Numbered from the stretch's first letter, positions 42,328 to 61,715 are shown. The stretch is DNA of 64,000 nucleotides from Bacteroidia bacterium (GCA_026391555.1 JAPLEB010000122.1:8778-72777); one strand, 5' to 3'. Program-made: numbers and translations. Notes: generated by a model from the sequence alone, not told the origin.

Positions 42328-44367
42328 ATGATGAAAATAAAATTACTTAAAAACTGCATTTTATTTATTTCAATGTTTTTTTTCGTAACAACATTGCAAT
42401 CACAATCCCTGTCAGTTTCTGCTTATGGAGTCTGGGATAGAGGTGATGGTGTTACTGATTTTTCGGACCCAAATTATGATTTTGTGCTTGGCATAGAGTC
42501 TGCTGCATATTGGTCGGATGTAAACCCTGTTCGGAATAACTTTAATTTTTCTGCATTACAGCTTGACTTGGATAAAGCATTTGCAAATAATAAATTAATT
42601 AGATTCAGTATTGGGGTAGGTCCAAATGGACCTGATTGGATGTATGATAATGATTCGGATTCTACTAATAATCCTTATCCGCAAATGCGAAAAGTGACTA
42701 CTAGTGGTGGTAATGATAAGGATAAATTCCCTTACTATCCACAATATTTATCTCAAACGCATAAGGATTATTTATTTAAGCTTATTCAGGAATTTTCTAT
42801 TTTCCTTAGGAATCAGCCAAAGGAGAAATTTGATTTGATTGCTTTTGTTCAAATTAAAACAGGCTGTACAGGAGACGAGGTTGCCTATAAAGGAACTGTT
42901 GACAATCCAGCTGATGCCATATCAAATGATGATTGGGAAAAGTATCGTTATGAGGTTTTTAATGAATACAAAAAGTGGTTTAACGATGTGCCAGACAGAA
43001 GGATAGTGTTAACATTTAACAGCTTAGATCCTTTTGAACCCGGGAAAGTTGAAGCCTGGAATTGGGTTACAACTCATATTGATCCTCAAATTGGTTTTGG
43101 AATTAAAGGCGGGGCTTTTAACAGGGGGCATCATTTATCGGATGAACAACCTTATAAAGAAACCTGGACCCCTTATTTAATCAATCCTAAAGGGACGAAA
43201 CTATTCTCGGCCTCAGAAATGGATCAATCTTGGACTAAAGGATATTTTACTATTAACTATGAAATTGGGTTTTATTGGGGAGCACTTGCGGGTATCAATG
43301 TAGGCTTGTCTACTTATAATGTAAGTAAATCCGCAATGGATTATGCATCTACCCATCCAGGGATTAGGGATATCTTTAGAATGTTCAGTAAATACGCACA
43401 ACAGGTATATCCAGCAACTGCCACAACAGCCTTTTCTATATTTCATGAAGGACTAAATTCTGCCGATAAAATAAAATTTCCTGAAAATATTTATGGAAAA
43501 AGTACTATGGTCAATTTAGACCGCTACAGAAAAATTTGCAAAGCTTATGAAGCCAGAGGAGCTCGAATCGATGATTCGCTAGCCGTTGTTCAAGGACAAG
43601 TTTATCAACGTGATAAACAGACAGGTTATAATGATGCCGGTTGGGAGATTGCAGAAGGTAATATTGAACGGTTTTTTACTCAAATTAAACCTGATTCAAC
43701 TTCTATTGGATTATTTAGGGTACGTGGAACAATTGATCAAAATTCCTCTAAGTACGATCGATTTGCCCGTTCATTTGAAAACGCAACAGGTAAAAACACC
43801 ATGTTTTGTAAATTTGATAATGAGGTATTTGCAAATTCGACTCCAAAAAGTTTAAAATTTAAAATTATTTGGTTAGATAAAATTGTAGGTTCAACCTGGT
43901 CTTTCAACTATAAATCCGAGCAAGGAATAAAGAGTGCTATTCAGGTTACAGGCATAGGTGATAATTCCTGGAAGGAAGTTTATTTTACAATTAACGATGC
44001 GATTGTGGATGGTAGTGGTTTGTTAGGTTCTGATTTTACACTTGTAAATACAGACGATAAGGATGATATTTTTAATGGTATTGAAGTAGATATTGAACGA
44101 GTGACAACCGGCGTAAAAGATATTGTTAACGACAAAGAAAATTCGTTTCAACTCTTTCCTAACCCTGTAAAATCGGTTTTGAATTGGGAAAATAGTATGA
44201 ATATCGACCGTGTAAAGATTTACAGTATTAACGGAGTATTATTATTCCAATCATCTAACACAGAAACCGGATCTATTGATCTCAGCCAGTTAAAAAGAGG
44301 AATGTATTTTTGCCAACTCTGTAAAGGTAATCAGGTAATTCATTCAGGGAAATTTATAAAAGAATAA
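42328..44367 (+). CDS. Unassigned putative glycoside hydrolase, paralog 1, with T9SS C-terminal domain
   Basis: 679 aa with a signal peptide. It is paralogous to 50087..51877 and 44380..46128. The C-terminal ~75 aa (FQLFPNPVKSVLNW...IYSINGVLLF...GMYFCQL) is a T9SS sorting domain. Confidence 0.7.
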   Translation: MMKIKLLKNCILFISMFFFVTTLQSQSLSVSAYGVWDRGDGVTDFSDPNYDFVLGIESAAYWSDVNPVRNNFNFSALQLDLDKAFANNKLIRFSIGVGPNGPDWMYDNDSDSTNNPYPQMRKVTTSGGNDKDKFPYYPQYLSQTHKDYLFKLIQEFSIFLRNQPKEKFDLIAFVQIKTGCTGDEVAYKGTVDNPADAISNDDWEKYRYEVFNEYKKWFNDVPDRRIVLTFNSLDPFEPGKVEAWNWVTTHIDPQIGFGIKGGAFNRGHHLSDEQPYKETWTPYLINPKGTKLFSASEMDQSWTKGYFTINYEIGFYWGALAGINVGLSTYNVSKSAMDYASTHPGIRDIFRMFSKYAQQVYPATATTAFSIFHEGLNSADKIKFPENIYGKSTMVNLDRYRKICKAYEARGARIDDSLAVVQGQVYQRDKQTGYNDAGWEIAEGNIERFFTQIKPDSTSIGLFRVRGTIDQNSSKYDRFARSFENATGKNTMFCKFDNEVFANSTPKSLKFKIIWLDKIVGSTWSFNYKSEQGIKSAIQVTGIGDNSWKEVYFTINDAIVDGSGLLGSDFTLVNTDDKDDIFNGIEVDIERVTTGVKDIVNDKENSFQLFPNPVKSVLNWENSMNIDRVKIYSINGVLLFQSSNTETGSIDLSQLKRGMYFCQLCKGNQVIHSGKFIKE

Positions 44368-44379
44368 ACAAACAACAAA

Positions 44380-46128
44380 ATGATGAAAATATATATTTTA
44401 ATTATTTATATTCTGATTGCCTTACAACAAAGTACTTTTAGTCAGCTTTATTCGCAAAAGGCAGAAAAACAGGCTCCCGGGATTTTTCCAAAAGAAGCTT
44501 GTGGTGTTTGGTGCTGGTACTCGTGGGGTGGCACACCAAGTAAGTGGAATGGCAAAATTGAAGCCAACGAAACTTATTCAAAAATGCGTGGTGTACCCAT
44601 CGTGATTGGGTGGAATGAGTTGGAACCAAAGGAAGGAGTAGTAAACTGGGATTTAATTGATGATATCATTAAAAAAGCAGCTGCTCACAAAAAATATGTA
44701 TTTACATTATTATGGCTGAATCCAACTGAACCAGATTGGTTGTATGAGAATGGTGTACCAAAGGTGGAGATAAAGACGTTTAAATCGGACAAAAATTTTT
44801 CTTACAATGCCTATCCGATGGATCCAAAATACAAGTTCTATTCCGAACGGATTATTACACAGTTAGCCGACCATCTTCGGAGTTTGCCCGACAGCTTGTT
44901 TAAGCACATACTTTTTCATCAGGCAGTGGAAGGCTCAACCGGCGATGGGTTTTGTTACAAAGGCGATCCTGTTGACCCCAAATTTAATGTAGACAAAAAA
45001 GAAGAATGGCCTGCCTATCAGGCATATATCAGAAAATTTACTATTAATGCTTTTACTAACGAAAGTAACGGTAAGCCTGCTATCCCATTGTTGATACATA
45101 CTGAAGACATGAACTGGGGAGCGAAAGAATATCCCGGTTTTATTGTCAAAAAAGGAGTTGCATCGCATTTCTACGGTATGAATGACACAAAAGAAAAAAT
45201 TGATATTTATAAACCATGGGATACTGACAAAAATAGTTTGCATCGTCCGGTGTTTAGTCGGGGCGAAGGCGAGACAATGTGGATGCATGAATGGTTTATA
45301 AAAGACTCCCTTCAAAATTTATACTGGAGTGCCCTGTATGCTTTACATTCTGGTTTGGATATCTGGAACATTCCCCAAAATGTACTTGAAAACCCCAAAT
45401 TATATCAGGCTTTAGATATATTTGATAAATATGCCGGGTATAAATATCCTGAACGGTCTCCGGTAGCCTTTTGTGCCATGAGAGATCAATTAAATGCTGA
45501 TGATAAAATCCGTTTCCCTGAAAATATTTATGGTGATGCCAACAAAAATAATACCGAAAGAGTACAAAAAATCTGCGCAGCTTTTGCGAGTCATGGTGCA
45601 ATCGTTGAAGATGTAGAAAAAAGCTTAGCCGGTTCACTCGCAAGTCGCGGCAGAAAAGGATATAATGATGTAGGTTGGAATTGTATAGACGATGATTATA
45701 ACCTGTATTTATATTCAATTGATAAAGTTCAAACGAGTGTAGGATGGTGGCACGTTGGTCCAAAAGATAAACCTTATGGTCTTTCTGCGAGAGGTTTTGA
45801 ACACGCCACAGGAAAAGATACACTCTTTTTTAAATTTCACAGTGACTTTTTTAAGACTACAAATGCTACCGCAAAAACCTTAACCTTCCGAATTGTTTGG
45901 CTCGACAACAATAAAGGTTCATGGAATTTCTGCTATGATGCCGGAGGTAAAACATTAAAAATAGCTAAAACTTTCACGGGTAAAGGAACCAACAGCTGGC
46001 GCGAAGATTATGTATCTGTAACCGATGCCATAATGAAAAATAATGGACCGGGAGGTTCAGATATTGCAATGATAAATGCAGGAAAAGAGGATCATATTTT
46101 CCATTTGATTGAAGTGGAAAGGAAATAA
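44380..46128 (+). CDS. Unassigned putative glycoside hydrolase, paralog 2 (diverged)
   Basis: 582 aa with a signal peptide. GWNELEPKEGVVNWDLIDDIIKKAAAHKKYVF resembles the first strands of clan GH-A barrels. It shares FPENIYG, GYNDVGW, ATGKDT and IVWLD with paralogs 1 and 3. Confidence 0.7.
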   Translation: MMKIYILIIYILIALQQSTFSQLYSQKAEKQAPGIFPKEACGVWCWYSWGGTPSKWNGKIEANETYSKMRGVPIVIGWNELEPKEGVVNWDLIDDIIKKAAAHKKYVFTLLWLNPTEPDWLYENGVPKVEIKTFKSDKNFSYNAYPMDPKYKFYSERIITQLADHLRSLPDSLFKHILFHQAVEGSTGDGFCYKGDPVDPKFNVDKKEEWPAYQAYIRKFTINAFTNESNGKPAIPLLIHTEDMNWGAKEYPGFIVKKGVASHFYGMNDTKEKIDIYKPWDTDKNSLHRPVFSRGEGETMWMHEWFIKDSLQNLYWSALYALHSGLDIWNIPQNVLENPKLYQALDIFDKYAGYKYPERSPVAFCAMRDQLNADDKIRFPENIYGDANKNNTERVQKICAAFASHGAIVEDVEKSLAGSLASRGRKGYNDVGWNCIDDDYNLYLYSIDKVQTSVGWWHVGPKDKPYGLSARGFEHATGKDTLFFKFHSDFFKTTNATAKTLTFRIVWLDNNKGSWNFCYDAGGKTLKIAKTFTGKGTNSWREDYVSVTDAIMKNNGPGGSDIAMINAGKEDHIFHLIEVERK

Positions 46129-48608: not shown

Positions 48609-50090
48609 ATGCAATCAAGTTTTATTAAAGCCGGGATATTTCCTCTCTTGTCAACAGTTGCTTTTCCATTAATTGCCAACACTTACGCAAAAGAGACAAC
48701 TGACAAGCCGAATATTATTCTTATTTTATCGGACGATCATAGTTATCCACACTTGGGTTGCTATGGTGATGCCAATGTGTTGAAATATAACATCACACCA
48801 AATTTAGACGCATTTGCCAAACAAGGAGTCAGATTTGAGAGAGCTTATACAACAGCTCCTCAATCTGCACCTTCACGTACTTCTATTTTTACAGGCTGCA
48901 GTCCGGTGAGCATCGATGTAACCCGCTTTGCTGAACCTGCAAGAAAGGACGTGCCATTTTTTACAGATGTATTGAGAAAATCGGGTTATTGGGTTGGTCT
49001 TGACGGTCGCAATCACCATTTGGATGGCACAGAAGATGATAAAAATCCAATGATTAACGAAGTCCTGGCAAAAGAGGGGATGAGAAGTCTCGATCTCCGT
49101 TTTGATCATGTGGCAAAATACAACACCAAAGGCGCTCATTTAGCCGAAGTGCCACAAAGAGTGAACTCCATTTTGGATGAAGTGCCAAAGGGAAAGCCAT
49201 TCTTCCTCTATTTTGGATTCAATCAGCCGCATAGAAAATTTGAAGATGGATACGAAGAGATAAATCCAGATCAATTGGTATTGCCTCCCGATTTCCCCGA
49301 TTTGCCTGAGGTTCGAAAAGATTATGCACGTTATTTATCCGATGTACGCGATATGGACGGCGGATTTGGTGCTATCATGAAGGTGTTGGAAGATCGGAAA
49401 TTGACCAAAAATACCATTGTTATTTTCATGGGTGATAACGGTGAATCGTTGTTGAGGGGTAAAGGAACGCTTCACAGTCGGGGTATTCACGTACCGCTCA
49501 TTATACGTTTTCCAGGCGTTACAAAACCTAATTCGTCGATTAAAACCTTAGTGAGTGGCGAAGACCTTGCCCCGACAATTCTTGATTTAGTGGGATTGTC
49601 TTTTGAGAAAGCAATTACGGGTAGAAGTTTTAGCAATACATTAAAAGGAATTGAGGATCAGAATAAGCGCGAATACGTTTTCGCTGAGCGTGGATGGCAT
49701 TCAGGACCTCTTACCCGAACAGACGGATTCGACCTTTCGAGATCGGTAACCTCCGATCGTTATCATTTTATTTACAATGCGCTGCCAAAACAAGAGTTTG
49801 CACAGGTAGATATGGTGAAAACCGAGGCATGGGAGGAAGTTGTAAAAGCGCATTCTGAAAAGAGATTGTCTGAATTAATTGAGAGTTTTTATTTTTACAA
49901 AGAACGATCGCTTTTTGAATTATACGATTTAGAGAATGACCCTTTTGAGTCCAATAATCTATCAGGACAGAAAGAATACAAAGAAATTGAGAAAGCCCTT
50001 AGAGACGAAATTGAGAAAAAGATGCTCGTAGATCATGATTTTCTTCCGTTGCCCTCTCATATAATTGATAACAATAAAAATAAAAAATGA
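48609..50090 (+). CDS. S1-family sulfatase, Ser-type
   Basis: 493 aa with NIILILSDDHSYPHLGCYG and the motif SAPSRTSIFTG. Confidence 0.9.
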   Translation: MQSSFIKAGIFPLLSTVAFPLIANTYAKETTDKPNIILILSDDHSYPHLGCYGDANVLKYNITPNLDAFAKQGVRFERAYTTAPQSAPSRTSIFTGCSPVSIDVTRFAEPARKDVPFFTDVLRKSGYWVGLDGRNHHLDGTEDDKNPMINEVLAKEGMRSLDLRFDHVAKYNTKGAHLAEVPQRVNSILDEVPKGKPFFLYFGFNQPHRKFEDGYEEINPDQLVLPPDFPDLPEVRKDYARYLSDVRDMDGGFGAIMKVLEDRKLTKNTIVIFMGDNGESLLRGKGTLHSRGIHVPLIIRFPGVTKPNSSIKTLVSGEDLAPTILDLVGLSFEKAITGRSFSNTLKGIEDQNKREYVFAERGWHSGPLTRTDGFDLSRSVTSDRYHFIYNALPKQEFAQVDMVKTEAWEEVVKAHSEKRLSELIESFYFYKERSLFELYDLENDPFESNNLSGQKEYKEIEKALRDEIEKKMLVDHDFLPLPSHIIDNNKNKK

Positions 50091-51877
50091 AAAACTCAGG
50101 TATGACATCAATGAAAAATCAGTTTGGCTTGTTTCTGCTCTTCATTGCAGCACCATTGTGCAATATGAATGTAGTTCAGGCACAAAAAGCAGCTGTTCCT
50201 ATTAGTACTTATGGAGTCTGGGATCGTGGGGAAGGAATTGATGATTATTCAGATCCAAAAGCGGATTTTGTATTGGGGATAGAAGTATCAGATAAATGGT
50301 CAAACGTTCAATCAAACGGGCCAGACAAATTTGATTTTTCTACCTTTCAGAACACGTTAGATAGGGCTGCGAAATACCATAAAATAGTAAAAGTAAGTAT
50401 TAATGTAGGACCGGACTCTCCGACTTGGCTATATGATAATGGTGTTCCATTGGTAAAGGTTGTAAGTTCTAAGCCGGAAAAACATGCCAAATTTCCGAAT
50501 TACCCTTATTATTTAAGTGATGCGTATATAAAATATTATTTTGAGCTTATTAAACAGTTCTCCCTTTTCTTGAGAAATCAGCCTAAAGAAAAATTCGATT
50601 GCATTGCATTTGTGCAAGTAAAAACAGGAGCAACTGGAGACGAAGCGCCTTACAAAGGAGAACCTATTGATAAAAAGTATGTGATTGCTAATAAAAAGGC
50701 TGAATGGGAAGATTTTCGCTTAGAGTCATTCGCTCAATTTAAAAAATATTTCAATGATGTAAATAATCGTCAGATTGTTTTGGTTTTTAATGCAGTAGAT
50801 CCTGACAAACAACCCATTGCTTATAATTGGGTCATGAATACCATCGACCCTCAAATTGGTTTTGGAATTAAAGGTGGCGCTTACAACAGAGGACATCATT
50901 TATCCGGCGAACAATCATTTAAAGAACAATGGACTCCTTATTTAATAAATCCCAAAGGGATGAAACTATTCTCAGCGTCTGAAATGGATGAATCGTGGAA
51001 CAAAGCGATATTTAATATTAACACAGAACTGGGATTTTATTGGTCAGCCCTTAGTGGAATTAATACAGGACTTTCTTCGTATAATGCCTCCAAACAAGCA
51101 ATTATTTATGCTTATGAGCATAAAGAGATTAGCGATATCTTTAGAATGTTCAATAAATATGCCCAACAGGTTTATCCGGCAACTACAACTACAGCCTTTT
51201 CTGTTTTTCACGAAGGACTAAATGCTGCCGATACGGTAAAATTCCCTGAAAAAAAATTCGGAAAAGCAAGTGAGAAAAATCTTGATCGCTACTCAAGTAT
51301 TTGCAAAGCCTATGAATCAAGAGGCGCTAAAATGGACGATTTAAAAGCTGTTACTATAGGTCAAGTAAACCAAAGGGAGCAACAGACTGGCTATAATGAT
51401 GTTGGTTGGGATATTGCAGAAGGAAATTATGAGCGGTTTTTGACTCAGATTAAACCGGATGAAACTTCAATTGGTCTTTTCAGAGTTCGTGGAACAATTG
51501 ATAAGAATTCATCTAAATACGATCGTTTTGCTCGTTCCTTTGAAAATTCAACCGGCAAAAACACCATGTATTTTAAATTTGATGATGAGATGTTTGCAAA
51601 TTCAAAACCGGAGAGTCTTCGTTTTACTATTACATGGCTCGACAAAAATGCAGGTTCTACCTGGTCGTTAAACTATAACAATGGGGATAAATCCATGAAA
51701 TCTGCTTTAAATGTTAAGGGTATTGGCGACAATCAATGGAAAACTCAAATCGTTACTATTAACGATGCAATTATTGATCGCAGTGGTAAATTCGGGTCTG
51801 ATTTTATGCTGGTTAATACCGATAAGGTTGATGATATTTTCAATGGTATTGAAGTTGATATTACACGAAAAAAATAA
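50087..51877 (+). CDS. Unassigned putative glycoside hydrolase, paralog 3
   Basis: 596 aa with a signal peptide, collinear with paralog 1. A 4-nt ATGA overlap joins it to the upstream sulfatase. Confidence 0.7.
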   Translation: MKNSGMTSMKNQFGLFLLFIAAPLCNMNVVQAQKAAVPISTYGVWDRGEGIDDYSDPKADFVLGIEVSDKWSNVQSNGPDKFDFSTFQNTLDRAAKYHKIVKVSINVGPDSPTWLYDNGVPLVKVVSSKPEKHAKFPNYPYYLSDAYIKYYFELIKQFSLFLRNQPKEKFDCIAFVQVKTGATGDEAPYKGEPIDKKYVIANKKAEWEDFRLESFAQFKKYFNDVNNRQIVLVFNAVDPDKQPIAYNWVMNTIDPQIGFGIKGGAYNRGHHLSGEQSFKEQWTPYLINPKGMKLFSASEMDESWNKAIFNINTELGFYWSALSGINTGLSSYNASKQAIIYAYEHKEISDIFRMFNKYAQQVYPATTTTAFSVFHEGLNAADTVKFPEKKFGKASEKNLDRYSSICKAYESRGAKMDDLKAVTIGQVNQREQQTGYNDVGWDIAEGNYERFLTQIKPDETSIGLFRVRGTIDKNSSKYDRFARSFENSTGKNTMYFKFDDEMFANSKPESLRFTITWLDKNAGSTWSLNYNNGDKSMKSALNVKGIGDNQWKTQIVTINDAIIDRSGKFGSDFMLVNTDKVDDIFNGIEVDITRKK

Positions 51878-51893
51878 AAAAATTATCTTTATA

Positions 51894-53486
51894 ATGAAAA
51901 ATGCAATTTTAAAAACTACTCAATGCACACTTGCTTTGGCGGGCCTTTGCTTGTCGACAAATGTAGTATGTCAAACCAAACGGCCCAATATATTAGTCAT
52001 CATGGGTGACGATATATCGCGAACCAGCATGGGCGTCTATGGTTGTAAGTATATTAAGACTCCCAATTTCGACAGAATTGCGAATGAAGGGGTTTTATTT
52101 ACTAATGCTTATGTTTGCAATCCTAAGAGTTCACCGTCCAGAGCTTGTTTCCTGACTGGTCGATATTCGTGGCAGCTCGAAGAAGCCTGTAACCACATAC
52201 CGGTAATGCCTCCAAAATGGAAATTCTATCCGGAATTACTGGAACAAAGCGGATATTCTATCGGCTTTACCGGAAAAGGATGGGCGCCCGGCGTGTTTTA
52301 TGGAGAACACAATCCCGCAGGTTGGGAATATAATAATATCTCTTGTACGCCCCCCTACAAAGGGATCAACAAACAGGATTATGCTGCTAACTTCGAAGAA
52401 TATCTGAATAAATGGGATGTAAACAAACCATTCTGTTTTTGGTTTGGAACTCATGAAGCACATCGTAAATACGAAGAAGACTCATATAAAAAGGAGGGTA
52501 AAGATTTAAGCAAAGTTGTCGTACAGGAATTTTTGCCTGACAATGAATTGGTTCGGGGCGATTTGGCCGATTATAGTGTAGAAGTAGAATACCACGATAT
52601 GATGATTGGTAAAGCTTTAGAATCGTTGGCTAAACGCGGTTTGCTCGACAATACAATTATTATTGCCACTTCCGATCAGGGCATGCCATTTCCCCGTGTC
52701 AAAGGACAAATTTATGATGAAGATTTTCATGAAGCATTTGTTGTTCGCTGGGGAGATAAAATTAAATCTGGTAGAACTGTTACCGATTTTATTAATTTTC
52801 CGGATGTTGCCCCCACCCTTATGGAGTTAGCAGGACTAAAACCTGATAAACAAATGACAGGGAAAAGCTTCCTCAATCTATTGCTCTCTGATAAATCAGG
52901 TAGACTTGACAAAGACCGAACTTTTTCTTTAATAGGAAGAGAACGACATGACATGGGACGTATAGATGGTGATCAAATTGCTGTTGGTTATCCTGTACGT
53001 GCAATAAGAACGGATAAATACCTGTATTCTCACAACTACAAACCTTACAGATGGCCGGCCGGTGATCCGGAATACGGATATAATAATTGCGATGACTCGC
53101 CGACTAAATCGTATTTAACAGGGTTGAAGGAAAATGATCCTGATTACAATTATTTCCTGCTATCTTTTGGCAAACGTCCGGCAGATGAACTTTATGATAT
53201 TGTTAAAGACCCCGATTGCGTACATAATTTAGCTGTTGATCCGAAGTATGCATCGGTTATTAAAGAATTAAAAACACAAATGGACAAAACTTTAAAACTT
53301 CAAAAAGACCCGCGCGTATTGGGTAAAGGTGATATTTTCGATTATTACCCGGAAGCTCGTGAAGAAAAACTGAAGAGAATGTACAAAGATAAATACTACG
53401 ATATGTATGATAAGTTCTTCGAAAAATTTGGTAAAAAAACAGTGCCAATACCTGAAGGATGGGTAGAAAAGGATGGGGAAAATTAA
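51894..53486 (+). CDS. S1-family sulfatase, Ser-type
   Basis: NILVIMGDDISRTSMGVYGC and the motif SSPSRACFLTGR. The signal peptide starts at the ATG at 51894. The track ORF start at 51711 lies inside paralog 3. Confidence 0.9.
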   Translation: MKNAILKTTQCTLALAGLCLSTNVVCQTKRPNILVIMGDDISRTSMGVYGCKYIKTPNFDRIANEGVLFTNAYVCNPKSSPSRACFLTGRYSWQLEEACNHIPVMPPKWKFYPELLEQSGYSIGFTGKGWAPGVFYGEHNPAGWEYNNISCTPPYKGINKQDYAANFEEYLNKWDVNKPFCFWFGTHEAHRKYEEDSYKKEGKDLSKVVVQEFLPDNELVRGDLADYSVEVEYHDMMIGKALESLAKRGLLDNTIIIATSDQGMPFPRVKGQIYDEDFHEAFVVRWGDKIKSGRTVTDFINFPDVAPTLMELAGLKPDKQMTGKSFLNLLLSDKSGRLDKDRTFSLIGRERHDMGRIDGDQIAVGYPVRAIRTDKYLYSHNYKPYRWPAGDPEYGYNNCDDSPTKSYLTGLKENDPDYNYFLLSFGKRPADELYDIVKDPDCVHNLAVDPKYASVIKELKTQMDKTLKLQKDPRVLGKGDIFDYYPEAREEKLKRMYKDKYYDMYDKFFEKFGKKTVPIPEGWVEKDGEN

Positions 53487-53496
53487 AAAAAAATAT

Positions 53497-54918
53497 ATGA
53501 AAATCAACAATTTATTATTTCCTGCGGTTTCATTATTAGCATTAAGTGCAGGTGCAAAAGAGAAAGAAACGGTTTTAAAACCAAACGTAAAACCCAATAT
53601 TGTTTTCATTTTAGCAGATGATATGGGTTACAACGAACTGGGCTGTTTTGGTGGCAAAGTAATCGAAACTCCCAATATCGACCGTTTGGCCAAACAGGGA
53701 ATGGTGTTTACAAACTATTATTGTGGTTCAAATCTTAGTGCACCTTCCCGATGTTCTTTGATGACAGGGAAACATACAGGTCATGCCTGGATCAGAGACA
53801 ATAAACCACTTCCTTTTGAGGGAAATGAGCCTATCCCTGCAAGTGAGGTGACGGTTGCCGAAGTGTTGAAGAGTGCAGGTTATACAACCGGAGCATTTGG
53901 TAAATGGGGATTGGGTTATCCAGGCTCTGAAGGGTCACCAAACAAGCAAGGTTTCGATCAGTTTTATGGTTATAACTGTCAGCGACATGCACACGATTAT
54001 TTCACTACCTACATGCGTCAAAACGACGATTCAGTCACATTATACGGGAATATAATAAAGCCGTTTACAATTTATAGTGCAAATGTTATTAAAGATGAGG
54101 CGTTAAAGTTTATTGAAGATAACAAAAATAAACCCTTCTTCCTGTACTTTGCGCCTACATTACCACATGCGGCTTATCACCAACCGGATGATTCTCTTTT
54201 GACATATTATGCAAAAAAAACCGGATTCCCCAAAGGTGTTGCGCATGACGAGGATTTTTCGGTACCAAAATATGCCTCTATGTCTTCCAGGCTTGATATG
54301 GAAGTGGGTGAAATCGTCGCGAAGTTGAAGGCAATGAACCTGTTGGATAATACCTTGATTATTTTTGCCAGCGATAATGGTACGGCTCTCAGACCCGAAG
54401 AAGATAGTTACCTGCAAACAGGAGGACAACTACATGGACGAAAAAGCGAAGTTTACGATGGCGGAATTAAAAGTCCTTTTGTTGCTTATTGGAAAGGGAA
54501 AATCAAACCTGGAACTAAATCCGGCCACATTTCTGCTTTCTGGGATTTCTTGCCTACTTGTGCCGAAATTGTCAACGTGAAAAATCCTGAAAATATCGAT
54601 GGTATTTCATTTCTGCCAACACTTTTAGGCAATACAAAAAAACAAAAAGAACACGAATACCTTTATTGGGAACGTAATCAATGTCAGGCCATCCGTCGAG
54701 GTGATATGAAAGCTGTTATAAAGTATGGAAAAAACGCCAATGAACAAACTGTCGAAATTTACAATCTGGCAAAAGATCCATTTGAAAAGACTGATTTAGC
54801 GGCATCAATGCCACAATTAAAAGATGAATTTCTGAAGCTGGCTAAAACAGCACATGTTGAATCAAATATTTTCCCATTTTTTAAAAAAGTAAAGAAAAAT
54901 CAAGATATAGAAGAATGA
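53497..54918 (+). CDS. S1-family sulfatase, Ser-type
   Basis: NIVFILADDMGYNELGCFGG and the motif SAPSRCSLMTGK. The signal peptide starts at the ATG at 53497. Confidence 0.9.
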   Translation: MKINNLLFPAVSLLALSAGAKEKETVLKPNVKPNIVFILADDMGYNELGCFGGKVIETPNIDRLAKQGMVFTNYYCGSNLSAPSRCSLMTGKHTGHAWIRDNKPLPFEGNEPIPASEVTVAEVLKSAGYTTGAFGKWGLGYPGSEGSPNKQGFDQFYGYNCQRHAHDYFTTYMRQNDDSVTLYGNIIKPFTIYSANVIKDEALKFIEDNKNKPFFLYFAPTLPHAAYHQPDDSLLTYYAKKTGFPKGVAHDEDFSVPKYASMSSRLDMEVGEIVAKLKAMNLLDNTLIIFASDNGTALRPEEDSYLQTGGQLHGRKSEVYDGGIKSPFVAYWKGKIKPGTKSGHISAFWDFLPTCAEIVNVKNPENIDGISFLPTLLGNTKKQKEHEYLYWERNQCQAIRRGDMKAVIKYGKNANEQTVEIYNLAKDPFEKTDLAASMPQLKDEFLKLAKTAHVESNIFPFFKKVKKNQDIEE

Positions 54919-55173: not shown

Positions 55174-56160
55174 TCATTCTAGAATTCCTCTCATGTATTC
55201 AATGCACTTAGTTACTTCTTTAACAGGGTCAGAACCTTCAGGGATCGGGTATTCAAGCTCAAGGTCAACATTAATGGGCCATTTCTCCTTTTTAAGAAGC
55301 AGAAGAATGTCAGCTATTGGTGTCTCACCCTGACCAAACGGCATATTGGTGTTTGGCTGTGCATGTTTCGGTCCGGTTTTATCCTTTATATGGATGCTCG
55401 GAATAAGTTTATGATATTTTTCTATAATGGTGTTCGGATGCAACCCGGTTGATCCGAAATAATGCCCTGCGTCAAGATTCAGCCTGTTGGCCGGTGAATA
55501 GCCCAGATACTTATCTATGTCAAATCCGGGCATCCCGAACTGACCATGGGTATGGAAGATAGCCAGGCTTTTATGTTTCTCGGCAAACGGACCAAGTCGT
55601 TTACTCGCCTCATCGGTGAATTCATCTGTTACGCCATATGCACCGAGTGTCTTTGCTGCATTATAAGCATAGTCAATTTCTTCATCTGACCATGATGAGG
55701 GTACAAACTTGGCAATATGGATATCCACACCGGCATCATTGTACATTTTTCGTATATCAGCATACTTTTGCATAGGTAATGATAATCGCCATTTGCGCTG
55801 TGCCTCTTTAACCCCTTCAGCTATTTTTGCACGTTCAGCTTTATCCTGCTCAGTAAGTTCAACACCACGTGCAGGACGCGGTGGCGCCTGAGGAATACCT
55901 AATCCCTCTTCAAGTACACTTCTCATTTCAAGAGTATTAACTCCGGACTGAAGGACATATTGAAGAACCTCATCAAGACTATGTGAAATACTCCGGTAGC
56001 AAAAGGTTGTGAGACCCAGCTGAACTCCATTTACTTTTGAGTTGGGCTTTTTAATCGACGAACCAATAGCGAAGGAATAATTGAAAGGGATTGCTGTAAT
56101 CGCAGCTCCAGTTGCAACTGTCCCCAAGAATTTGCGTCTCGAGATTGATGAGTTTTTCAT
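55174..56160 (-). CDS. Tat-exported xylose-isomerase-like TIM-barrel protein
   Basis: 328 aa with the twin-arginine signal SRRKFLGTVATGAAITA and TIM-barrel motifs (FHTHGQ, IHIKD, DLELEY). Confidence 0.8.
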   Translation of the reverse strand: MKNSSISRRKFLGTVATGAAITAIPFNYSFAIGSSIKKPNSKVNGVQLGLTTFCYRSISHSLDEVLQYVLQSGVNTLEMRSVLEEGLGIPQAPPRPARGVELTEQDKAERAKIAEGVKEAQRKWRLSLPMQKYADIRKMYNDAGVDIHIAKFVPSSWSDEEIDYAYNAAKTLGAYGVTDEFTDEASKRLGPFAEKHKSLAIFHTHGQFGMPGFDIDKYLGYSPANRLNLDAGHYFGSTGLHPNTIIEKYHKLIPSIHIKDKTGPKHAQPNTNMPFGQGETPIADILLLLKKEKWPINVDLELEYPIPEGSDPVKEVTKCIEYMRGILE

Positions 56161-56357
56161 GTTTATTATTTTTTATTAATATTATTTATCCGGTTGAAAT
56201 TCATTTAAAATAACTCAGGTATTAATGAGTTTCAAGGTCTATAAAGATAAGTATTTTAATTTTCTGTATACTTGTTCAGAACTTTCATTCAGATTTGTTT
56301 TACCTATATTTTCTAAATGGAAATTGACTTTTCTCTGATGTTTTAAAATTGGTTAAT

Positions 56358-56593
56358 ATGAAAGCAAAAAACCTCTTGATCATTATTATAATGTTTTTAT
56401 TGTTATTCGTTTCACAACAGGCTCATTCACAGCTGCCTAAGGAGACTGAAGCCCAGAAAATGCAGCGAATGAAATGGTGGACCGATGCCCGGTTTGGGAT
56501 GTTCATTTACTTGCCTATCCGATGGGGAACCTGACACTTCCGGTTCAGAAACCACAAAGTGAGATTCCGGTGCTGGAGGTTTATCTCAAGTAG
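56358..56593 (+). pseudogene. GH29 alpha-L-fucosidase remnant (internal deletion)
   Basis: A signal peptide is followed by MKWWTDARFGMFI, the GH29 N-terminal motif (normally ...ARFGMFIHWG). It then diverges to a stop at 56532-56534. A different frame continues LTLPVQKPQSEIPVLEVYLK to a stop at 56591-56593, which may be the old C-terminus. Confidence 0.55.
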
Positions 56594-56596
56594 TCA

Positions 56597-56638
56597 GAAG
56601 TCCGAAGTCCGAAGTACAGTTTCCGACTTCCGGCTTCT
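56597..56638. terminator. Hairpin built from heptad words between convergent genes
   Basis: (GAAGTCC)x2 plus GAAGTAC pairs with TTCCGAC-TTCCGGC-TTCT. About 15 of 18 positions are complementary. Confidence 0.45.
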
Positions 56639-56639
56639 A

Positions 56640-57518
56640 TCATATTCCTGTCATTTTATTAAACAGAGCTAACTGGTCTTTCATTGCACTGATCCTGTCA
56701 GCCGGTGAAGTACGGGCCTCAAGAAGTATCCACCCATCATACTTAATTCCGTTAAACAGGTTAAAGAGCTGCTGATATGGGTAGTTGCCTTCATTAAGCT
56801 CCCGGATGTGCACAGTGTCGCCAAACCATTTTTTTACCGAATTGAAATTAGCTTCCAGTCCCGGAGGAAGTAAGTCCTGGTCATTGCAGTTCCAGCACAT
56901 TTTTACATTCTTTTCGGTTACCTGTTCAAAGATGGCCCTCATATTGGGTATTTCCTGTGTAAGATTTCCATGAACCTCTACTCTTATTAGCTGACCATAA
57001 TCCTGTGCAAACTTTCCAACCTCATTCAGCGAAGCAGCTATTTGTGCAATAGTTTTTTCTTTAGCAACTGAAGCAGGAAGATCATTCGGTTTCACTTTTA
57101 TACCAGAGGCCCCTATATCTTTACAAAGCTTGATATACTCTTTTGTCTGTTCAATATTTTCGCGCAGTTTGGCAGGATCGGGGCTATGGTATTCAAAATT
57201 AGCACCATAGCCAATGCATGTAACCTTACTGTCGGCGAACCGTTTTTTTACCTCGGCACGTTGTGCTGCATTCAGATTTGTCTCAACTTTATGCGCATGA
57301 TGTGTGCGCAACTCCAATCCCAGTAAACCGGTTTTTTCGCAGTTGGCAATCAGAGTAGGGAGATCCCAATCCTGACCCCAGAGGTAAGTGCATAACCCCA
57401 GCTTCATTCCTGATACGACGGAAACTGAAAATGCTTCCAGGTTTCTCATTGCTGCCAGTCCGATACCTGCGGCAAGGCTTTTCTGAATAAATACACGACG
57501 CGATAAATTGTTTTTCAT
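56640..57518 (-). CDS. Tat-exported xylose-isomerase-like TIM-barrel protein
   Basis: 292 aa with the signal SRRVFIQKSLAAGIGLAA and motifs LELRTHHAH, IRVEVHGN and ILLEAR. Confidence 0.8.
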   Translation of the reverse strand: MKNNLSRRVFIQKSLAAGIGLAAMRNLEAFSVSVVSGMKLGLCTYLWGQDWDLPTLIANCEKTGLLGLELRTHHAHKVETNLNAAQRAEVKKRFADSKVTCIGYGANFEYHSPDPAKLRENIEQTKEYIKLCKDIGASGIKVKPNDLPASVAKEKTIAQIAASLNEVGKFAQDYGQLIRVEVHGNLTQEIPNMRAIFEQVTEKNVKMCWNCNDQDLLPPGLEANFNSVKKWFGDTVHIRELNEGNYPYQQLFNLFNGIKYDGWILLEARTSPADRISAMKDQLALFNKMTGI

Positions 57519-57605
57519 GATAATATATTTTTTTAAAAAAATATTTAAGTTGTGCTAACCTGTTTAATTAACTTCGTTGAGGGCTTCGCCGTTCACAAAC
57601 TTCAA

Positions 57606-57647
57606 AAAAGACAAAAGATAAAAGGCTAAAGACAAAAGGTTCAAGAC
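57606..57647 (+). repeat. Heptad word array (AAAAGNN-type), 6 units
   Basis: AAAAGAC AAAAGAT AAAAGGC TAAAGAC AAAAGGT TCAAGAC. Confidence 0.7.
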
Positions 57648-57712
57648 ATTATGAAAAACAAGCATAAAAATCAACTTTAAAAATATATATTGAAAATGGT
57701 TTGCAAATGCCT

Positions 57713-57747
57713 GACTTTTATCTTTTTACTTTTGTCTTTTATCTTCT
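57713..57747 (-). repeat. Heptad word array, inverted orientation, 5 units
   Basis: GACTTTT ATCTTTT TACTTTT GTCTTTT ATCTTCT is the reverse complement of the AAAAGNN words and can pair with 57606-57647. Confidence 0.7.
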
Positions 57748-57763
57748 GCATGAATAATGCAGG
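57734..57763 (+). repeat. 30-nt exact repeat, right copy
   Basis: Identical to 21066-21095. The next 4 nt differ at one position (CTAA here, TTAA in the left copy). Confidence 0.8.
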
Positions 57764-57777
57764 CTAAGATAGTAAAA

Positions 57778-58026
57778 ATGAAAATTGAAACTTTTAAAAG
57801 CATACATACACTTAAAGCTTCTAATTTTGAAATAAAACAGACAGTTACAACATGGAAATCATACTTTAATATACTAGCTGGTTTAGTTCTGGGAGCCTTA
57901 ATTGCGTATATGGGAACAAAGTCCGGATTAATTCTTATTCATCAGCAGATACTGCTTGAGAAAACTGATGAAAAGAATATGGAAAAGACAAAAGTTGAGG
58001 CGCAGCCGAACCGGGCTGCAGGCTAA
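57778..58026 (+). CDS. Small hypothetical membrane protein
   Basis: 82 aa from the ATG at 57778, with one predicted TM segment (FNILAGLVLGALIAYMG). No recognisable family; weak call. Confidence 0.3.
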   Translation: MKIETFKSIHTLKASNFEIKQTVTTWKSYFNILAGLVLGALIAYMGTKSGLILIHQQILLEKTDEKNMEKTKVEAQPNRAAG

Positions 58027-58053
58027 CTCGGCGCAGCCAAACGCCATAACGGT

Positions 58054-58074
58054 TAAAGACAAAAAGTAAAAGGC
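58054..58074 (+). repeat. Heptad word array, 3 units
   Basis: TAAAGAC AAAAAGT AAAAGGC. Confidence 0.6.
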
Positions 58075-58136
58075 ATATTTTCATTTATTACGACTCCTTT
58101 TGCTGCTATAACGGCCTCTTTTATTATTTTTGCAGT

Positions 58137-58439
58137 ATGAGTGAAAAAATGAAACCTATTTTCGGGAAGCGCATTTTTTGGGATGTAAACTTTGAGCAGA
58201 TTAACTACGATGCCAGGGCCAACTTTGTTATTGAGCGGGTTTTTGAACGTGGCGATGTTGAGGATATCCGCCAGTGCCGGAGGTATTATGGCGATGAAAA
58301 AGTGACTGCCGCTCTGTTACACGCTAAGTACTTGCCACTTCAGACTATCCATTTTGCCAGCGCAATAATTGATAAACCACTTAATGAATTCAGATGTTAC
58401 ATACTGAGGCAGTTGACCCCGGGGCTCTTTCCTTACTGA
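58137..58439 (+). CDS. Small partner protein of the AbiEii-type nucleotidyltransferase (putative antitoxin, DUF6922-like)
   Basis: 100 aa (IFWDVNFEQINYDARANFVIERVFERGDVEDIRQCRRYYG). It overlaps the downstream NTase gene by 46 nt. The family name comes from memory of typical Bacteroidota gene pairs. Confidence 0.55.
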   Translation: MSEKMKPIFGKRIFWDVNFEQINYDARANFVIERVFERGDVEDIRQCRRYYGDEKVTAALLHAKYLPLQTIHFASAIIDKPLNEFRCYILRQLTPGLFPY

Positions 58440-59020
58440 AAAAGTTAATGACGCTACCATCCCTTCAACCATTTTCGTTGGTGGGAGGAACAGCCTTGTC
58501 GTTACGGTATGGCCATCGCAGTTCGGTTGATCTGGATTTATTTTTTCATGAAAAATTTGATCATCCCCAAGTAATTGATGAACTTGAGGCAACTTTCAAA
58601 CATAGATTTGTTTACAAACAGCAACAGACACAGTTTGGAATTTTTTGTTTCATTGATGACATTAAAGTTGATATTGTTCACTTTCCCCACCTGCCGATTG
58701 CTGCTATTGAGGAGGAGGACAAAATAAGAATGTACAGCAGCGCTGATATTTCTGCAATGAAGATTCAAGCTATATTTGGGAGGGCAAAGAAAAAGGACTT
58801 TTGGGATTTGTATGAATTACTCCGGCATTACCCGTTGCAACAACTTATTGAATGGCACAAACAGAAATATCCCAGCCAAATGCTGGCAATAAGTATTCCT
58901 CATGCAATCACCTACTTTGCCGATGCAGAAGAAAGCGAAGCACCCGTGAGTTTTGAAAATCAAACATGGGAACGAATAAAAAAGGGCATTTCGAAAACGG
59001 TGAGTGATTATCTGAGATAA
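58394..59020 (+). CDS. AbiEii/AbiGii-family nucleotidyltransferase toxin
   Basis: 208 aa with FSLVGGTALSLRYGHRSSVDLDLF, the GG...DxD NTase core typical of AbiEii. Confidence 0.8.
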   Translation: MLHTEAVDPGALSLLKKLMTLPSLQPFSLVGGTALSLRYGHRSSVDLDLFFHEKFDHPQVIDELEATFKHRFVYKQQQTQFGIFCFIDDIKVDIVHFPHLPIAAIEEEDKIRMYSSADISAMKIQAIFGRAKKKDFWDLYELLRHYPLQQLIEWHKQKYPSQMLAISIPHAITYFADAEESEAPVSFENQTWERIKKGISKTVSDYLR

Positions 59021-59039
59021 AAGGGAAAAGGCAAAAGAT
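59019..59039 (+). repeat. Heptad word array, 3 units
   Basis: AAAAGGG AAAAGGC AAAAGAT, starting inside the AbiEii stop codon. Confidence 0.6.
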
Positions 59040-59248
59040 AACCTGACTGCCCTGTCTTTCCTTTAGCGATTTATCGGGGAAGTGGAGCTCAGTACTGATT
59101 AGTTACTCAGAAAATAATTTTGTATCTCTTAAGAATTTTTATATCTTGCGGTTCCCTGTTTAGGTTTGATTCTATCCATTTATTCAGGTGTAGAAGTTAA
59201 TTTCGTTGTTTTAAAATAGTAATTATTGATAATAAAAATAATTAAATA

Positions 59249-60088
59249 ATGAAGTCACGTCGTCAATTTTTTAAGTTGGCCGGTACAGGCATTATTGCAG
59301 CAGGGGTATCATCTGTTTACGCTTCATCAGGCATTCCATCTCTGATTGAAAATACGCCAGATATTTTCAGTATTGGAATGGCTGGTTTTACATTCAAGGA
59401 ATTCACTGTTGAGAAAACCATCGAAATGATGAATAGGATAAGGGTTACCAACCTTTCTCTGAAAGATTTTCACATGCCATTGAACAGCACCCAGGAACAG
59501 ATTAATGCTGTTTTAGAGAAGTTTAAAATTGCAGGAATTAATGTTTACACTGTTGGCGTAGTTTATATGAAGACCCAGGAGTCAGTTGATCAGGCCTTTG
59601 AATATGCAAAAATGGCCGGAGTTAAAATGATAGTCGGGGCCCCAAATTACGAGCTTCTTCCATACGTAGAGAAAAAGATAAAAACATACGACTTCAAACT
59701 TGCAATTCATAATCATGGTCCGGATAACCCACTCTATCCGAATGCCACAGATATATGGGACCATATAAAAGACCTTGATCCACGTATAGGGATATGCATC
59801 GATATCGGGCATACAACCAGGGACGGTGAGGATCCTTCAGCTGATATTGAGAAATATAGCAAACGGATTTATGACATTCATATCAAGGATGTTAACAAAG
59901 CCACAAAGGAGGGTAAGACAATTGAAATTGGCAGGGGAGTTATCGATATTCCAAAGGTAGTCGCCACTCTTCGTAAAGTTAAATACAGTGGAAGTTGCAG
60001 TCTTGAATTTGAAAAAGATATGAAAGACCCGCTTGCAGGAATAGCCGAATCGATAGGATATTTCAAAGGGGTGATGGCATGTAAGTAA
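59249..60088 (+). CDS. Tat-exported xylose-isomerase-like TIM-barrel protein
   Basis: 279 aa with the signal SRRQFFKLAGTGIIAAGV and motifs LAIHNHG, IDIGHTTRDG, IHIKD and CSLEFE. Confidence 0.8.
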   Translation: MKSRRQFFKLAGTGIIAAGVSSVYASSGIPSLIENTPDIFSIGMAGFTFKEFTVEKTIEMMNRIRVTNLSLKDFHMPLNSTQEQINAVLEKFKIAGINVYTVGVVYMKTQESVDQAFEYAKMAGVKMIVGAPNYELLPYVEKKIKTYDFKLAIHNHGPDNPLYPNATDIWDHIKDLDPRIGICIDIGHTTRDGEDPSADIEKYSKRIYDIHIKDVNKATKEGKTIEIGRGVIDIPKVVATLRKVKYSGSCSLEFEKDMKDPLAGIAESIGYFKGVMACK

Positions 60089-60165
60089 TGAATAGTGAGT
60101 AGTGAATAGTGAATAGTGAATAGTGAATAGTGAATAGTGAATAGTGAATAGTGAATAGTGAATAG
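60089..60165 (+). repeat. Tandem heptamer (TGAATAG) x 11
   Basis: 11 consecutive units counted by hand, with one variant (TGAGTAG as unit 2). The array starts 1 nt after the TAA stop of the TIM-barrel gene. Confidence 0.95.
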
Positions 60166-60189
60166 TAATGCGAAATAAGTTCAATTTAA

Positions 60190-60220
60190 TCCCCTCATGG
60201 GAGAGGCCAAAGGTGGGTTA
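60190..60220 (+). repeat. C/G-word element (short relative of 2383-2434)
   Basis: TCCCCTCATGGGAGAGGCCAAAGGTGGGTTA. The reverse complement of 2383-2434 is TCCCCTCCTGGGAGAGCC...GGTGGGTTA. They share 17 of 19 nt at the 5-prime end and 9 of 9 at the 3-prime end. Confidence 0.5.
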
Positions 60221-60299
60221 ATGGATCAACTTGAAGAGAAAGTTAAGCGATTTTTTAATGCCGCCGATTAATAATTTGTAAACCTTTATAGAAAATAAT

Positions 60300-61715
60300 A
60301 TGAAAAATAAAACACGTCGTGATTTTCTGAAAAAATCCCTTCTGACCGGTGTAGGCCTGATTACTCTTCCTGAAATACTGAGGCAATCTACATTTGCCAT
60401 TGGTTCGCCAAATAAGCTCATTCAGTTTGCTCAAATCGGTTGTGGCCGTGAAGGAACTTCAGATTATGAAGGGACAATGAAACACACGGACCTTTGCAGA
60501 ATGGTTGCTGTTTGTGACCTTGACTCACGAAGAGTTGATTTAGCAAAAAAGACTGTTGAGGAGTTCTACAGGAATAAAGGGGAAACGAATGTTGATGTGA
60601 AAGCCTATCATGACTTCAATGAAGTGCTTGCCCGTCCAGATATTGATGCTGTAATCGTCAGCGTTCCTGACCATCAACACGCATTTGTTGCTGTCAAGGC
60701 AGTACTTGCCGGGAAGGATGTGTACGTTCAGAAGCCATTGACATATTCAATATCAGAGGCAATAGCTTTGCGGACAGCCGTCAGGTCAAGGAAGATAATT
60801 CTTCAGACGGGTAGTCAGCAACGTTCCGAAAAACCCTGGAACACATTTCGTATTGCCAGTGAAGCGGTTCGCAATGGTCGCATTGGAAAGCTTCACTCAG
60901 TAAAAATCGGTATTGGGATAGACAAAATTAAGGGTGTTAAGCCATTACCCCAGACTCCTCCTTCAACCTTTGATTATGAACGCTGGCTGGGAGCAGCACC
61001 TGAGCAACCCTATATGGAATTCAGGTGTCATCCTCAGGACAGTATCGACGGAAGGCCAGGCTGGATAACAACTGAAGACTTTGGCCTTGGAATGATAACC
61101 AACTGGGGAGCACATCATATGGATATAGCTCATTGGGCTATGGGGTTAGAACTTGACGGGCCTTTATCTGTTGTGGCAAAAGCTGACTTCATGAAAGATG
61201 ATGTATGGACCGTTCACACTACTTACCATGCAGAGATGATGTATCCGGGTAATATACAGGTGATCCTTGATAATAAGTTTACCAACGGTATTCAGTTCGA
61301 AGGATCCGATGGGATGGTATTTTGTGCCCGTGGCAGCGAAAAGGTAACCAAAAGCGACCCTGTTTCCACAGTTGATGATAAGAAAGGTCCGCTTTTTGCC
61401 AGTAACGATAAAATTCTATATCCCAGGGTAGGTTCCGAAGGTAAAATATGGATGCCAAGTGCTGACCATTACCGTAACTGGCTCGAAAGCATTATAAGCC
61501 GTAAAGATCCAATAGCCCCGGTCGATCAGTCAACCCGTAGCCTTGAGGCGTGTGCAGTAGCCTGGATAGGAATGAAGCTGAACCGTAAACTCACCTGGGA
61601 TGCTAAGAAAGAGAAGTTTGTCGGCGATAAAGAAGCTAATGCAATGCTGTCGCGCAAAGCACGTAAACCTGAATACGACTTAACTTTATTAATGAAGAAG
61701 GCAGGATTGGTCTGA
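60300..61715 (+). CDS. Tat-exported Gfo/Idh/MocA-family oxidoreductase
   Basis: 471 aa with the signal TRRDFLKKSLLTGVGLITL, Rossmann segment FAQIGCGREG and VSVPDHQHAFVAVKAVLAGKDVYVQKPL. Confidence 0.85.
   Translation: MKNKTRRDFLKKSLLTGVGLITLPEILRQSTFAIGSPNKLIQFAQIGCGREGTSDYEGTMKHTDLCRMVAVCDLDSRRVDLAKKTVEEFYRNKGETNVDVKAYHDFNEVLARPDIDAVIVSVPDHQHAFVAVKAVLAGKDVYVQKPLTYSISEAIALRTAVRSRKIILQTGSQQRSEKPWNTFRIASEAVRNGRIGKLHSVKIGIGIDKIKGVKPLPQTPPSTFDYERWLGAAPEQPYMEFRCHPQDSIDGRPGWITTEDFGLGMITNWGAHHMDIAHWAMGLELDGPLSVVAKADFMKDDVWTVHTTYHAEMMYPGNIQVILDNKFTNGIQFEGSDGMVFCARGSEKVTKSDPVSTVDDKKGPLFASNDKILYPRVGSEGKIWMPSADHYRNWLESIISRKDPIAPVDQSTRSLEACAVAWIGMKLNRKLTWDAKKEKFVGDKEANAMLSRKARKPEYDLTLLMKKAGLV

Follow-up and report, generated by a model that had tools for sequence, protein, structure and literature searches.

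What do four putatively exported enzymes, encoded within 6.5 kb of a wetland bacterial genome, do in the periplasm, and do they serve the polysaccharide utilization locus (PUL) that lies beside them? The window considered here is a stretch of 64,000 nucleotides (JAPLEB010000122.1:8778-72777) on contig C70 of the 3.5 Mb genome of an uncultured wetland Bacteroidales bacterium. Its positions 55174-61715 encode three xylose-isomerase-like TIM barrels (A, B, and C) and one Gfo/Idh/MocA oxidoreductase (D), all predicted to be exported by the twin-arginine translocation (Tat) pathway. The original prediction, which was made from the DNA sequence, proposed that this set could supply the missing bond-cleaving chemistry to a hydrolase-poor PUL, by C3 oxidation followed by elimination or hydration. 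Our analysis favors, at a rough probability of 0.55, that the four proteins are periplasmic sugar-transforming enzymes of the oxidize/eliminate/hydrate (3-keto-glycoside) superfamilies. On the basis of sequence comparisons, we read them as a module that is independent of the neighboring sulfatase PUL.

All four open reading frames (ORFs) are intact at the coordinates originally given for them. A (55174-56160, 328 aa) and B (56640-57518, 292 aa) lie on the minus strand, and C (59249-60088, 279 aa) and D (60300-61715, 471 aa) on the plus strand. Each N-terminus has a twin-arginine motif followed by a hydrophobic stretch: ISRRKFLG in A (motif SRRKFL at residues 7-12), LSRRVFIQ in B (SRRVFI), KSRRQFFK in C (SRRQFF), and KTRRDFLK in D (TRRDFLK). 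Proteins were considered Tat substrates if they combined an S/T-R-R-x-F-L-K motif near the N-terminus with a hydrophobic stretch in a genome that encodes the Tat machinery; TatC is encoded here on contig C151. The arginines are conserved, with R8 and R9 invariant or nearly so in an alignment of 49 relatives of A, and R6 and F9 invariant and R7 at least 90% conserved in an alignment of 27 relatives of D. Orthologs of A are named ‘twin-arginine translocation signal domain-containing protein’ by NCBI. A strict Tat motif with a hydrophobic stretch is found in 30 of the 2509 genome ORFs of at least 150 aa; about 0.06 such ORFs are expected per 6.5 kb, compared with the four in this locus. Twelve of the 30 encode Gfo/Idh/MocA proteins and eight encode xylose-isomerase-like TIM barrels (20 together). 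The four predicted Tat signals were therefore borne out.

Gene D encodes the putative oxidizing enzyme. The protein matches PF01408 (59.7 bits), PF19051 (60 bits), and PF22725 above cut-off, and it has the features by which we defined the Gfo/Idh/MocA family, namely a Rossmann domain (PF01408), a C-terminal alpha/beta domain, a GxGxxG motif, and the lysine of an (E/Q)KP motif. G47, G49, K145, and P146 are invariant among the 27 relatives, as are D73, D75, D124, H125, H127, H272, and D275. The position of Asp73 and Asp75 after the second strand suggests that the cofactor is NAD rather than NADP. When the D-family profile was compared with the PDB, the Alistipes sp. glucoside-3-dehydrogenase AL3 (8tdf/8tdh, the latter trehalose-bound) ranked first at E 2e-38, ahead of an inositol dehydrogenase at E 1.5e-28; AL3 is about 30 bits better and its alignment reaches further along D. 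AL3 and the AL1 and BT1 lyases discussed below are enzymes of Nasseri et al. 2024, identified here by their PDB titles only. AL3 is also the best Foldseek match (E 4.7e-24, TM 0.65-0.68, 455 columns) of the AlphaFold model of D (pLDDT 85, pTM 0.85), followed by DgpA C-glycoside 3-dehydrogenases, glucuronide-3-dehydrogenase, and GFOR. The relatives of D that come after AL3 are DgpA, glucuronide-3-dehydrogenase, KanD2, and WlbA, all of which oxidize sugars at C3. DH-x-HA and (E/Q)KP motifs are common to D and AL3. Because AL3 is nearest both by profile and by fold, D appears to work most like a sugar C3 dehydrogenase, yet outside the BT2158 equivalog group, and is a candidate NAD-preloaded glycoside 3-dehydrogenase.

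Three narrower assignments for D were weighed, and none was adopted. Its top NCBIfam model is the BT_2158_fam glycoside 3-dehydrogenase (NF058561); the score of 113.1 bits, over residues 5-301 only, rules D out as the BT2158 equivalog, for which the cut-off is 750 bits over the whole protein. IolG inositol 2-dehydrogenase (TIGR04380), the runner-up model, scores 64.6 bits compared with a cut-off of 355. For the GH109 NAD-dependent glycosidases, the criterion was similarity to the alpha-N-acetylgalactosaminidase NagA throughout the catalytic domain; 2ixa matches the D-family profile in the Rossmann part only (positions 37-153, E 5.5e-15), far behind AL3. The true BT2158 equivalog of this genome is encoded at C72:30088-31575 (857 bits). 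Next to it lies a DUF1080 gene, and at a distance of 5 kb a Tat TIM barrel (C72:30088-37368, L044), giving a canonical-looking 3-keto-disaccharide module on a separate contig.

The three putative partners of D match PF01261 with 33.9 (A), 73.5 (B), and 80.9 bits (C), above the gathering cut-off of 31.1, so that the predicted composition of three TIM barrels and one Gfo/Idh/MocA protein holds. They are also diverged, as had been claimed: A and C are 27% identical over 194 aa, and outside the signal peptide BLAST gives no significant match between B and either of them. C matches the structure 3lmz at E 1.3e-95 and the Agrobacterium 3-keto-O-glycoside beta-eliminase AtOGE (8bvk) at E 4.8e-6. The metal ligands of AtOGE are His132, Asp163, His189, and Glu233, and its catalytic residue is His134 (PMC10628242). 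The alignment superposes the HNH motifs of the two proteins, pairs D185 with the Asp of ELDVA, and matches IHIKD to IHAKD, which places H154/H156 on His132/His134, D185 on Asp163, and H211 on His189. With E253 as the equivalent of Glu233, the AtOGE-type site is present residue for residue in C, and none of its five residues varies among eight relatives. A falls in the same clade (A-family profile against 3p6l, E 8e-28) and has the AtOGE-type set H203, H205, D230, H257, and E301/E303, a correspondence by motif rather than by direct alignment. These residues are invariant or nearly so in the 49 relatives of A, together with E78, K259, and D260. Both A and C keep the His-x-His/Asp/His/Glu metal-site residues of AtOGE, and A is a candidate 3-keto-glycoside 1,2-lyase or keto-glycal hydratase.

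Barrel B seems most like ketose 3-epimerases, with a changed metal site. Its best solved match is a D-tagatose 3-epimerase (E 1.1e-6, residues 39-268), in which Glu152, His211, and Glu246 align with E181, H237, and E267, and N210 stands in place of Asp185. B has an E181-x-H183 motif. Compared with the AtOGE site, its first ligand is Glu and the Asp is changed to Asn, and all five site residues (E181, H183, N210, H237, E267) are invariant in eight orthologs. Assignment as a ketose 3-epimerase was not upheld, given 28.6 bits for model NF051856 (cut-off 300) and the change of Asp185, one ligand of the Glu/Asp/His/Glu metal site, to the invariant N210. A search of the ESM Atlas with B gave generic ‘sugar phosphate isomerase/epimerase’ clusters only. 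The inositol enzyme IolE (TIGR04379, cut-off 290 bits), which is the second-best NCBIfam model of C, was likewise rejected, with scores of 44.7 bits for C, 16.5 for A, and 16.8 for B.

The fold of A does not discriminate between these chemistries. The AlphaFold model is a TIM barrel (pLDDT 92.2) nearest to 3lmz, 3p6l, and Art22 (Z 23 to 3lmz and Art22). The 3-keto-beta-glucopyranoside 1,2-lyases AL1 (8tcd) and BT1 (8tct), C-glycoside deglycosidases, and AtHYD match at Z 20-22, and UlaE, AsbF, IolE, and xylose isomerase at about the same Z as the lyases. In Foldseek and VIA-align, a span of about 3 Z units takes in lyases, hydratases, C-glycoside enzymes, epimerases, IolE, and AsbF. As a result, the fold permits but does not prove the proposed chemistry.

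These assignments suggest a cycle in the periplasm. D would fold around NAD(H) in the cytoplasm, be exported by Tat, and then oxidize a glycoside at C3. The aglycone may then be eliminated across C1-C2 by a metal-dependent barrel, which could be A, C, or both, or by the DUF1080 protein encoded nearby, and a second barrel would hydrate the keto-glycal. The NADH kept on D would then reduce the 3-keto sugar to the sugar and close a redox-neutral cycle, so that no free periplasmic NAD pool would be needed. For BT2158, it has been proposed that the Gfo enzyme is exported with its cofactor already loaded and that the cycle is redox-neutral (PMC8121099), and a cycle of this kind has been shown stepwise with Agrobacterium enzymes (PMC10628242). 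The analysis shows the genes, their export signals, their folds, the conserved residues of the sites, and the pairings that recur; the substrate, the sequence of reactions, and the part played by each barrel are inferred.

The DUF1080 gene (PF06439, ‘3-keto-disaccharide hydrolase’) is found at C70:75005-75775 on the minus strand, 4.5 kb past D and 2.2 kb beyond the window, and encodes a secreted protein. In an Akkermansiaceae metagenome-assembled genome (MAG), a double-DUF1080 gene (L036:805-3609) that is 48% identical to it ends 22 nt before a 62%-identical ortholog of D. The whole genome studied here also carries seven DUF1080 genes and two DUF6807 genes.

Gene neighborhoods were compared in 24 same-genus genomes, a 300-genome order-wide draw, and 15 other D loci, the last from Bacteroidales MAGs of fens, soils, and sediments and from the Akkermansiaceae MAG. 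Orthologs of D (70-88% identity) are numerous across fen, soil, and sediment metagenomes and rare in reference genomes (three of the 24 same-genus genomes and one of the 300); with a single occurrence, the order-wide draw yields no co-occurrence statistics. Among the same-genus genomes, A has orthologs in nine, B in 14, and C in 12. In four of the 15 other D loci, an ortholog of A lies within 10 kb of the D ortholog, and in two of these four the genes adjoin; A with D is the sole pairing of the four genes that recurs elsewhere. A C-like barrel is present at one of the 15 loci and B was not found in any of them. In several genomes, a ~210-235-aa protein that has the CarboxypepD_reg and Plug domains of a TonB-dependent receptor, and no others, is encoded directly downstream of A, or of A and D, at L025:3779-4477, L024:5584-6294, and L058:4218-4856; it is absent from the window.

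A paralogous version of the arrangement is conserved within the genus. Five same-genus genomes and one further MAG contain a triad (C-like barrel <- Tat Gfo / -> A), which lies inside a SusC/SusD locus in at least three of those genomes. This locus also contains B, three more Tat Gfo genes, GDSL/AXE-type esterases, a URO-D-like gene, and one GH3 gene, and the bulk of it is missing from the present genome. In the same-genus genome G019 (C113, ~10.5-34 kb; L057, L058; also L053, L054), four Tat Gfo/Idh/MocA genes and three Tat TIM barrels, including orthologs of A and B, are accompanied by esterases, the URO-D-like gene, and only one GH3. In its relatives, B lies beside a ~455-aa Tat Gfo/Idh/MocA gene, often with DUF6807, and in some genomes inside a SusC/SusD locus. 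DUF6807 is not found among the genes from A to D; the two copies in this genome adjoin other Gfo paralogs on C106 and C140. We read the set as a loose, recently assembled cluster in which A with D is the recurring core, B is peripheral, and C takes the place that the C-like barrel has in the genus-conserved triad.

The four genes are not one operon, but two divergent pairs, and a toxin-antitoxin cassette and a fucosidase remnant lie in the gaps. The 479-nt gap between A and B contains an N-terminal remnant of a GH29 alpha-L-fucosidase (56349-56534, plus strand), in which a signal peptide and WWTDARFGMFI are followed by derailed sequence. The remnant shares 75% identity over 40 aa with the first part of a full-length 451-aa gene (L063:198-1553) in a same-genus genome, where that gene lies 4 kb from the B ortholog. 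B and C are divergent, and a patch between them (57718-59041) encodes an 89-aa ORF and a toxin-antitoxin pair, DUF6922 (58137-58439) and AbiEii nucleotidyltransferase (58394-59020). Inverted repeats of 27 nt (57718-57744 and 59015-59041), 85% complementary, flank the patch, which for this reason appears to be inserted; it looks like a cassette that split a formerly divergent pair of B and C-D. C and D run in the same direction with an 11-copy TGAATAG array between them (60089-60166), which starts 1 base after the C stop and ends 134 nt before D. This array is prone to slippage and is positioned between two possibly co-transcribed genes. Just upstream of B (57606-57748) there is an imperfect 37-nt inverted repeat of AAAAGAC/AAAAGGC words, with arms at 57612-57648 and 57712-57748 that are 63 nt apart. 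A scan for promoters and terminators performed no better than shuffled sequence (16 promoter-like sites compared with 19.9 expected; one terminator compared with 5.9). Downstream of D, a 1314-aa LRR/BACON gene is followed by the DUF1080 gene outside the window.

While the 3-keto-glycoside route is the reading we prefer, several observations weigh against it. D is only ~20% identical to AL3 and 29% identical to the BT2158 equivalog of its own genome, and it falls below the BT_2158_fam cut-off. By fold for A and by sequence for B, epimerases, IolE, AsbF, and UlaE are just as close, which leaves the chemistry of these barrels unfixed. At 11 of the 15 other D loci there is no barrel within 10 kb, and the neighbors of D are unrelated genes or a sugar-porter MFS gene. 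At the present locus, the usual partners of B (the ~455-aa Tat Gfo and DUF6807) are absent and genes A to D are not co-transcribed.

The main rival explanation is that the periplasmic substrates are free monosaccharides or cyclitols and that no glycosidic bond is cut. The enzymes might perform a GFOR-like dismutation, pair an inositol-type dehydrogenase with an IolE-like dehydratase, or epimerize sugars through a keto intermediate. Relatives of D carry the JGI name ‘myo-inositol 2-dehydrogenase’, IolG and IolE rank second among the NCBIfam models of D and C, respectively, and B resembles ketose 3-epimerases. Likewise, a sugar-porter MFS gene lies next to the D ortholog in at least three of the 15 loci, and GFOR is the classic Tat-exported Gfo enzyme (PMC8121099). 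The IolG and IolE scores, however, are far below their cut-offs and below the glycoside 3-dehydrogenase match of D, and the D-family profile prefers AL3 to inositol dehydrogenase. The association with DUF1080 points to 3-keto-glycosides, and the eliminase-type His-x-His is kept in both A and C. We regard action on free sugars as unlikely, though it is the alternative that survives best.

It seems slightly less probable still that the four genes are unrelated passengers, united by local rearrangement, whose partners lie elsewhere and whose clustering is meaningless. The GH29 remnant, the toxin-antitoxin cassette with its inverted repeats, and the heptamer array are all signs of such rearrangement in this interval. 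The four genes are clustered in this genome only, and the same-genus genome G022 has them on three contigs. Orthologs of C elsewhere have no Gfo or barrel neighbor, only an unrelated 645-aa gene, and about ten other Tat Gfo proteins and six other Tat barrels in the genome are possible partners. These points tell against the original treatment of the four genes as one set, which are split between two strands by the remnant and the cassette. The pairing of A with D at four other loci and the recurrence of a barrel-Gfo-barrel triad with paralogs nevertheless argue against pure coincidence, as does the density of four Tat genes of these two families in 6.5 kb, which is far above chance.

The neighboring PUL (21591-54918) encodes a hybrid two-component regulator, two SusC/SusD pairs, and five sulfatases. 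It had been described as poor in hydrolases, but five candidate glycosidases are present: two melibiase-like genes and three paralogs of a GH42/GH35-like family in the PUL core (42328-44367, 44380-46128, and 50087-51877). The first and third paralogs share 62% identity, and the second shares 29-33% with them; their Pfam matches are limited to a weak GH42 match on the second and a type IX secretion system (T9SS) sorting tail on the first. The last sulfatase (53473-54918) ends 255 nt from the end of A and is convergent with it, so the two share no transcript. Neither this sulfatase nor the SusD at 34065-35942 has an ortholog in the 24 same-genus genomes, where A, B, and C are common, which indicates that the four genes are conserved independently of the PUL. 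At the 15 other D loci, there is no SusC/SusD pair, only short SusC-like N-terminal pieces (~27-31% identity) in three, and a sulfatase occurs at one (32% identity). Genome-wide, clusters of Gfo and TIM barrel genes lie near SusD at about chance frequency. A to D show neither the co-orientation nor the co-conservation with SusC/SusD and sulfatases by which PUL membership was judged. Physical adjacency and the different SusC/SusD locus of same-genus genomes, which shows that such enzymes can work with SusCD uptake because it contains them (A and B orthologs and a C-like barrel among four Tat Gfo genes, esterases, and one GH3), are the points in favor of a role in the PUL, and we consider it very improbable that A to D are accessory to the adjacent PUL and supply missing bond cleavage on its imported sulfated glycan. 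Of the original interpretation, periplasmic export, the family assignments, and the C3-oxidation route are supported, the last through the likeness of D to AL3 and of C to AtOGE, whereas the single unit and the tie to the PUL are not supported.

Beyond the preferred 3-keto-glycoside reading, a more specific proposal can be made, though we hold it to be speculative and unlikely in its full form. The D subfamily, the A/C barrels of the 3lmz/3p6l clade, and DUF1080 may constitute a distinct periplasmic system of wetland Bacteroidales for the non-hydrolytic cleavage of glycosides. Its counterpart in relatives might be an ‘oxidative PUL’ behind SusC/SusD for esterified or methylated plant glycosides; the SusC/SusD loci concerned contain esterases and a URO-D-like protein and almost no glycoside hydrolases.

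Keto-intermediate routes are already described in gut and soil bacteria. If our assignment is right, it adds uncharacterized subfamilies to the recently described oxidize-eliminate-hydrate mode of glycan breakdown, including an A/C clade that contains three orphan crystal structures. About two thirds of the predicted Tat substrates of this organism would serve 3-keto-type chemistry. This would help to explain how Bacteroidales of peat and wetlands, which are seemingly poor in glycoside hydrolases, turn over carbon, and it would leave the neighboring sulfated-glycan locus unexplained.

Several known systems resemble the locus in part. In the GlycDH/AtOGE/AtHYD/Gfo operon of Agrobacterium tumefaciens (Bitter et al. 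2023, PMC10628242; 8bvk, 8ro4), two xylose-isomerase-like barrels are likewise combined with an oxidoreductase, and equivalents of His132/His134/Asp163/His189/Glu233 are kept in C and, by motif, in A. Sequence similarity to that system is weak (E 5e-6), the enzymes here are predicted to be Tat-exported, and the oxidizing enzyme is of the Gfo-type NAD class rather than GlycDH. The C-glycoside enzymes offer a second comparison. DgpA is among the best matches of D by sequence and fold, DgpB-C is among the fold matches of A (Z ~21), and the Glu-x-His arrangement of such enzymes (PMC10628242) is also found in B. They differ in being cytoplasmic and in forming heteromeric DgpB-C complexes with lid domains, for which the locus has no second-subunit gene. 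GFOR of Zymomonas mobilis is, like D, a Tat-exported Gfo/Idh/MocA protein and a fold match; it has a non-dissociable nicotinamide cofactor and a ping-pong, redox-neutral cycle (PMC8121099). It is ~14% identical to D, acts on free glucose and fructose at C1/C2, and is without the long C-terminal part common to D and AL3. The true close family of C and A is represented by 3lmz, 3p6l (BDI_1903), and 4kw2 (BDI_1873) of Parabacteroides distasonis, structural-genomics proteins that give no chemistry because they have no assigned function.

A further comparison is with the stepwise 3-keto-glycoside pathway of Bacteroides thetaiotaomicron BT2156-BT2159 (Liu et al. 2021, PMC8121099) and the Alistipes AL enzymes. 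We took such a cluster to require genes for a Tat Gfo 3-dehydrogenase, a PF01261 lyase, and a DUF1080 protein, side by side and all in the same orientation. Gfo, PF01261, and DUF1080 genes lie within 12 kb here, but on both strands, with the toxin-antitoxin cassette and the 1314-aa LRR gene interposed, and none is orthologous to the characterized proteins. A co-directional operon and a SusR-type regulator are both absent, none of the three barrels is an ortholog of AL1/BT1 (best E 3e-7), and it is the C72 locus, with its DUF1080 gene, that holds the true equivalog of BT2158 (857 bits, compared with 113 for D and a cut-off of 750). What the systems have in common is a Tat-exported Gfo/Idh/MocA protein of ~470 aa with a C-terminal extension, the nearest to D by fold and profile, encoded here in the vicinity of PF01261 barrels and a DUF1080 protein.

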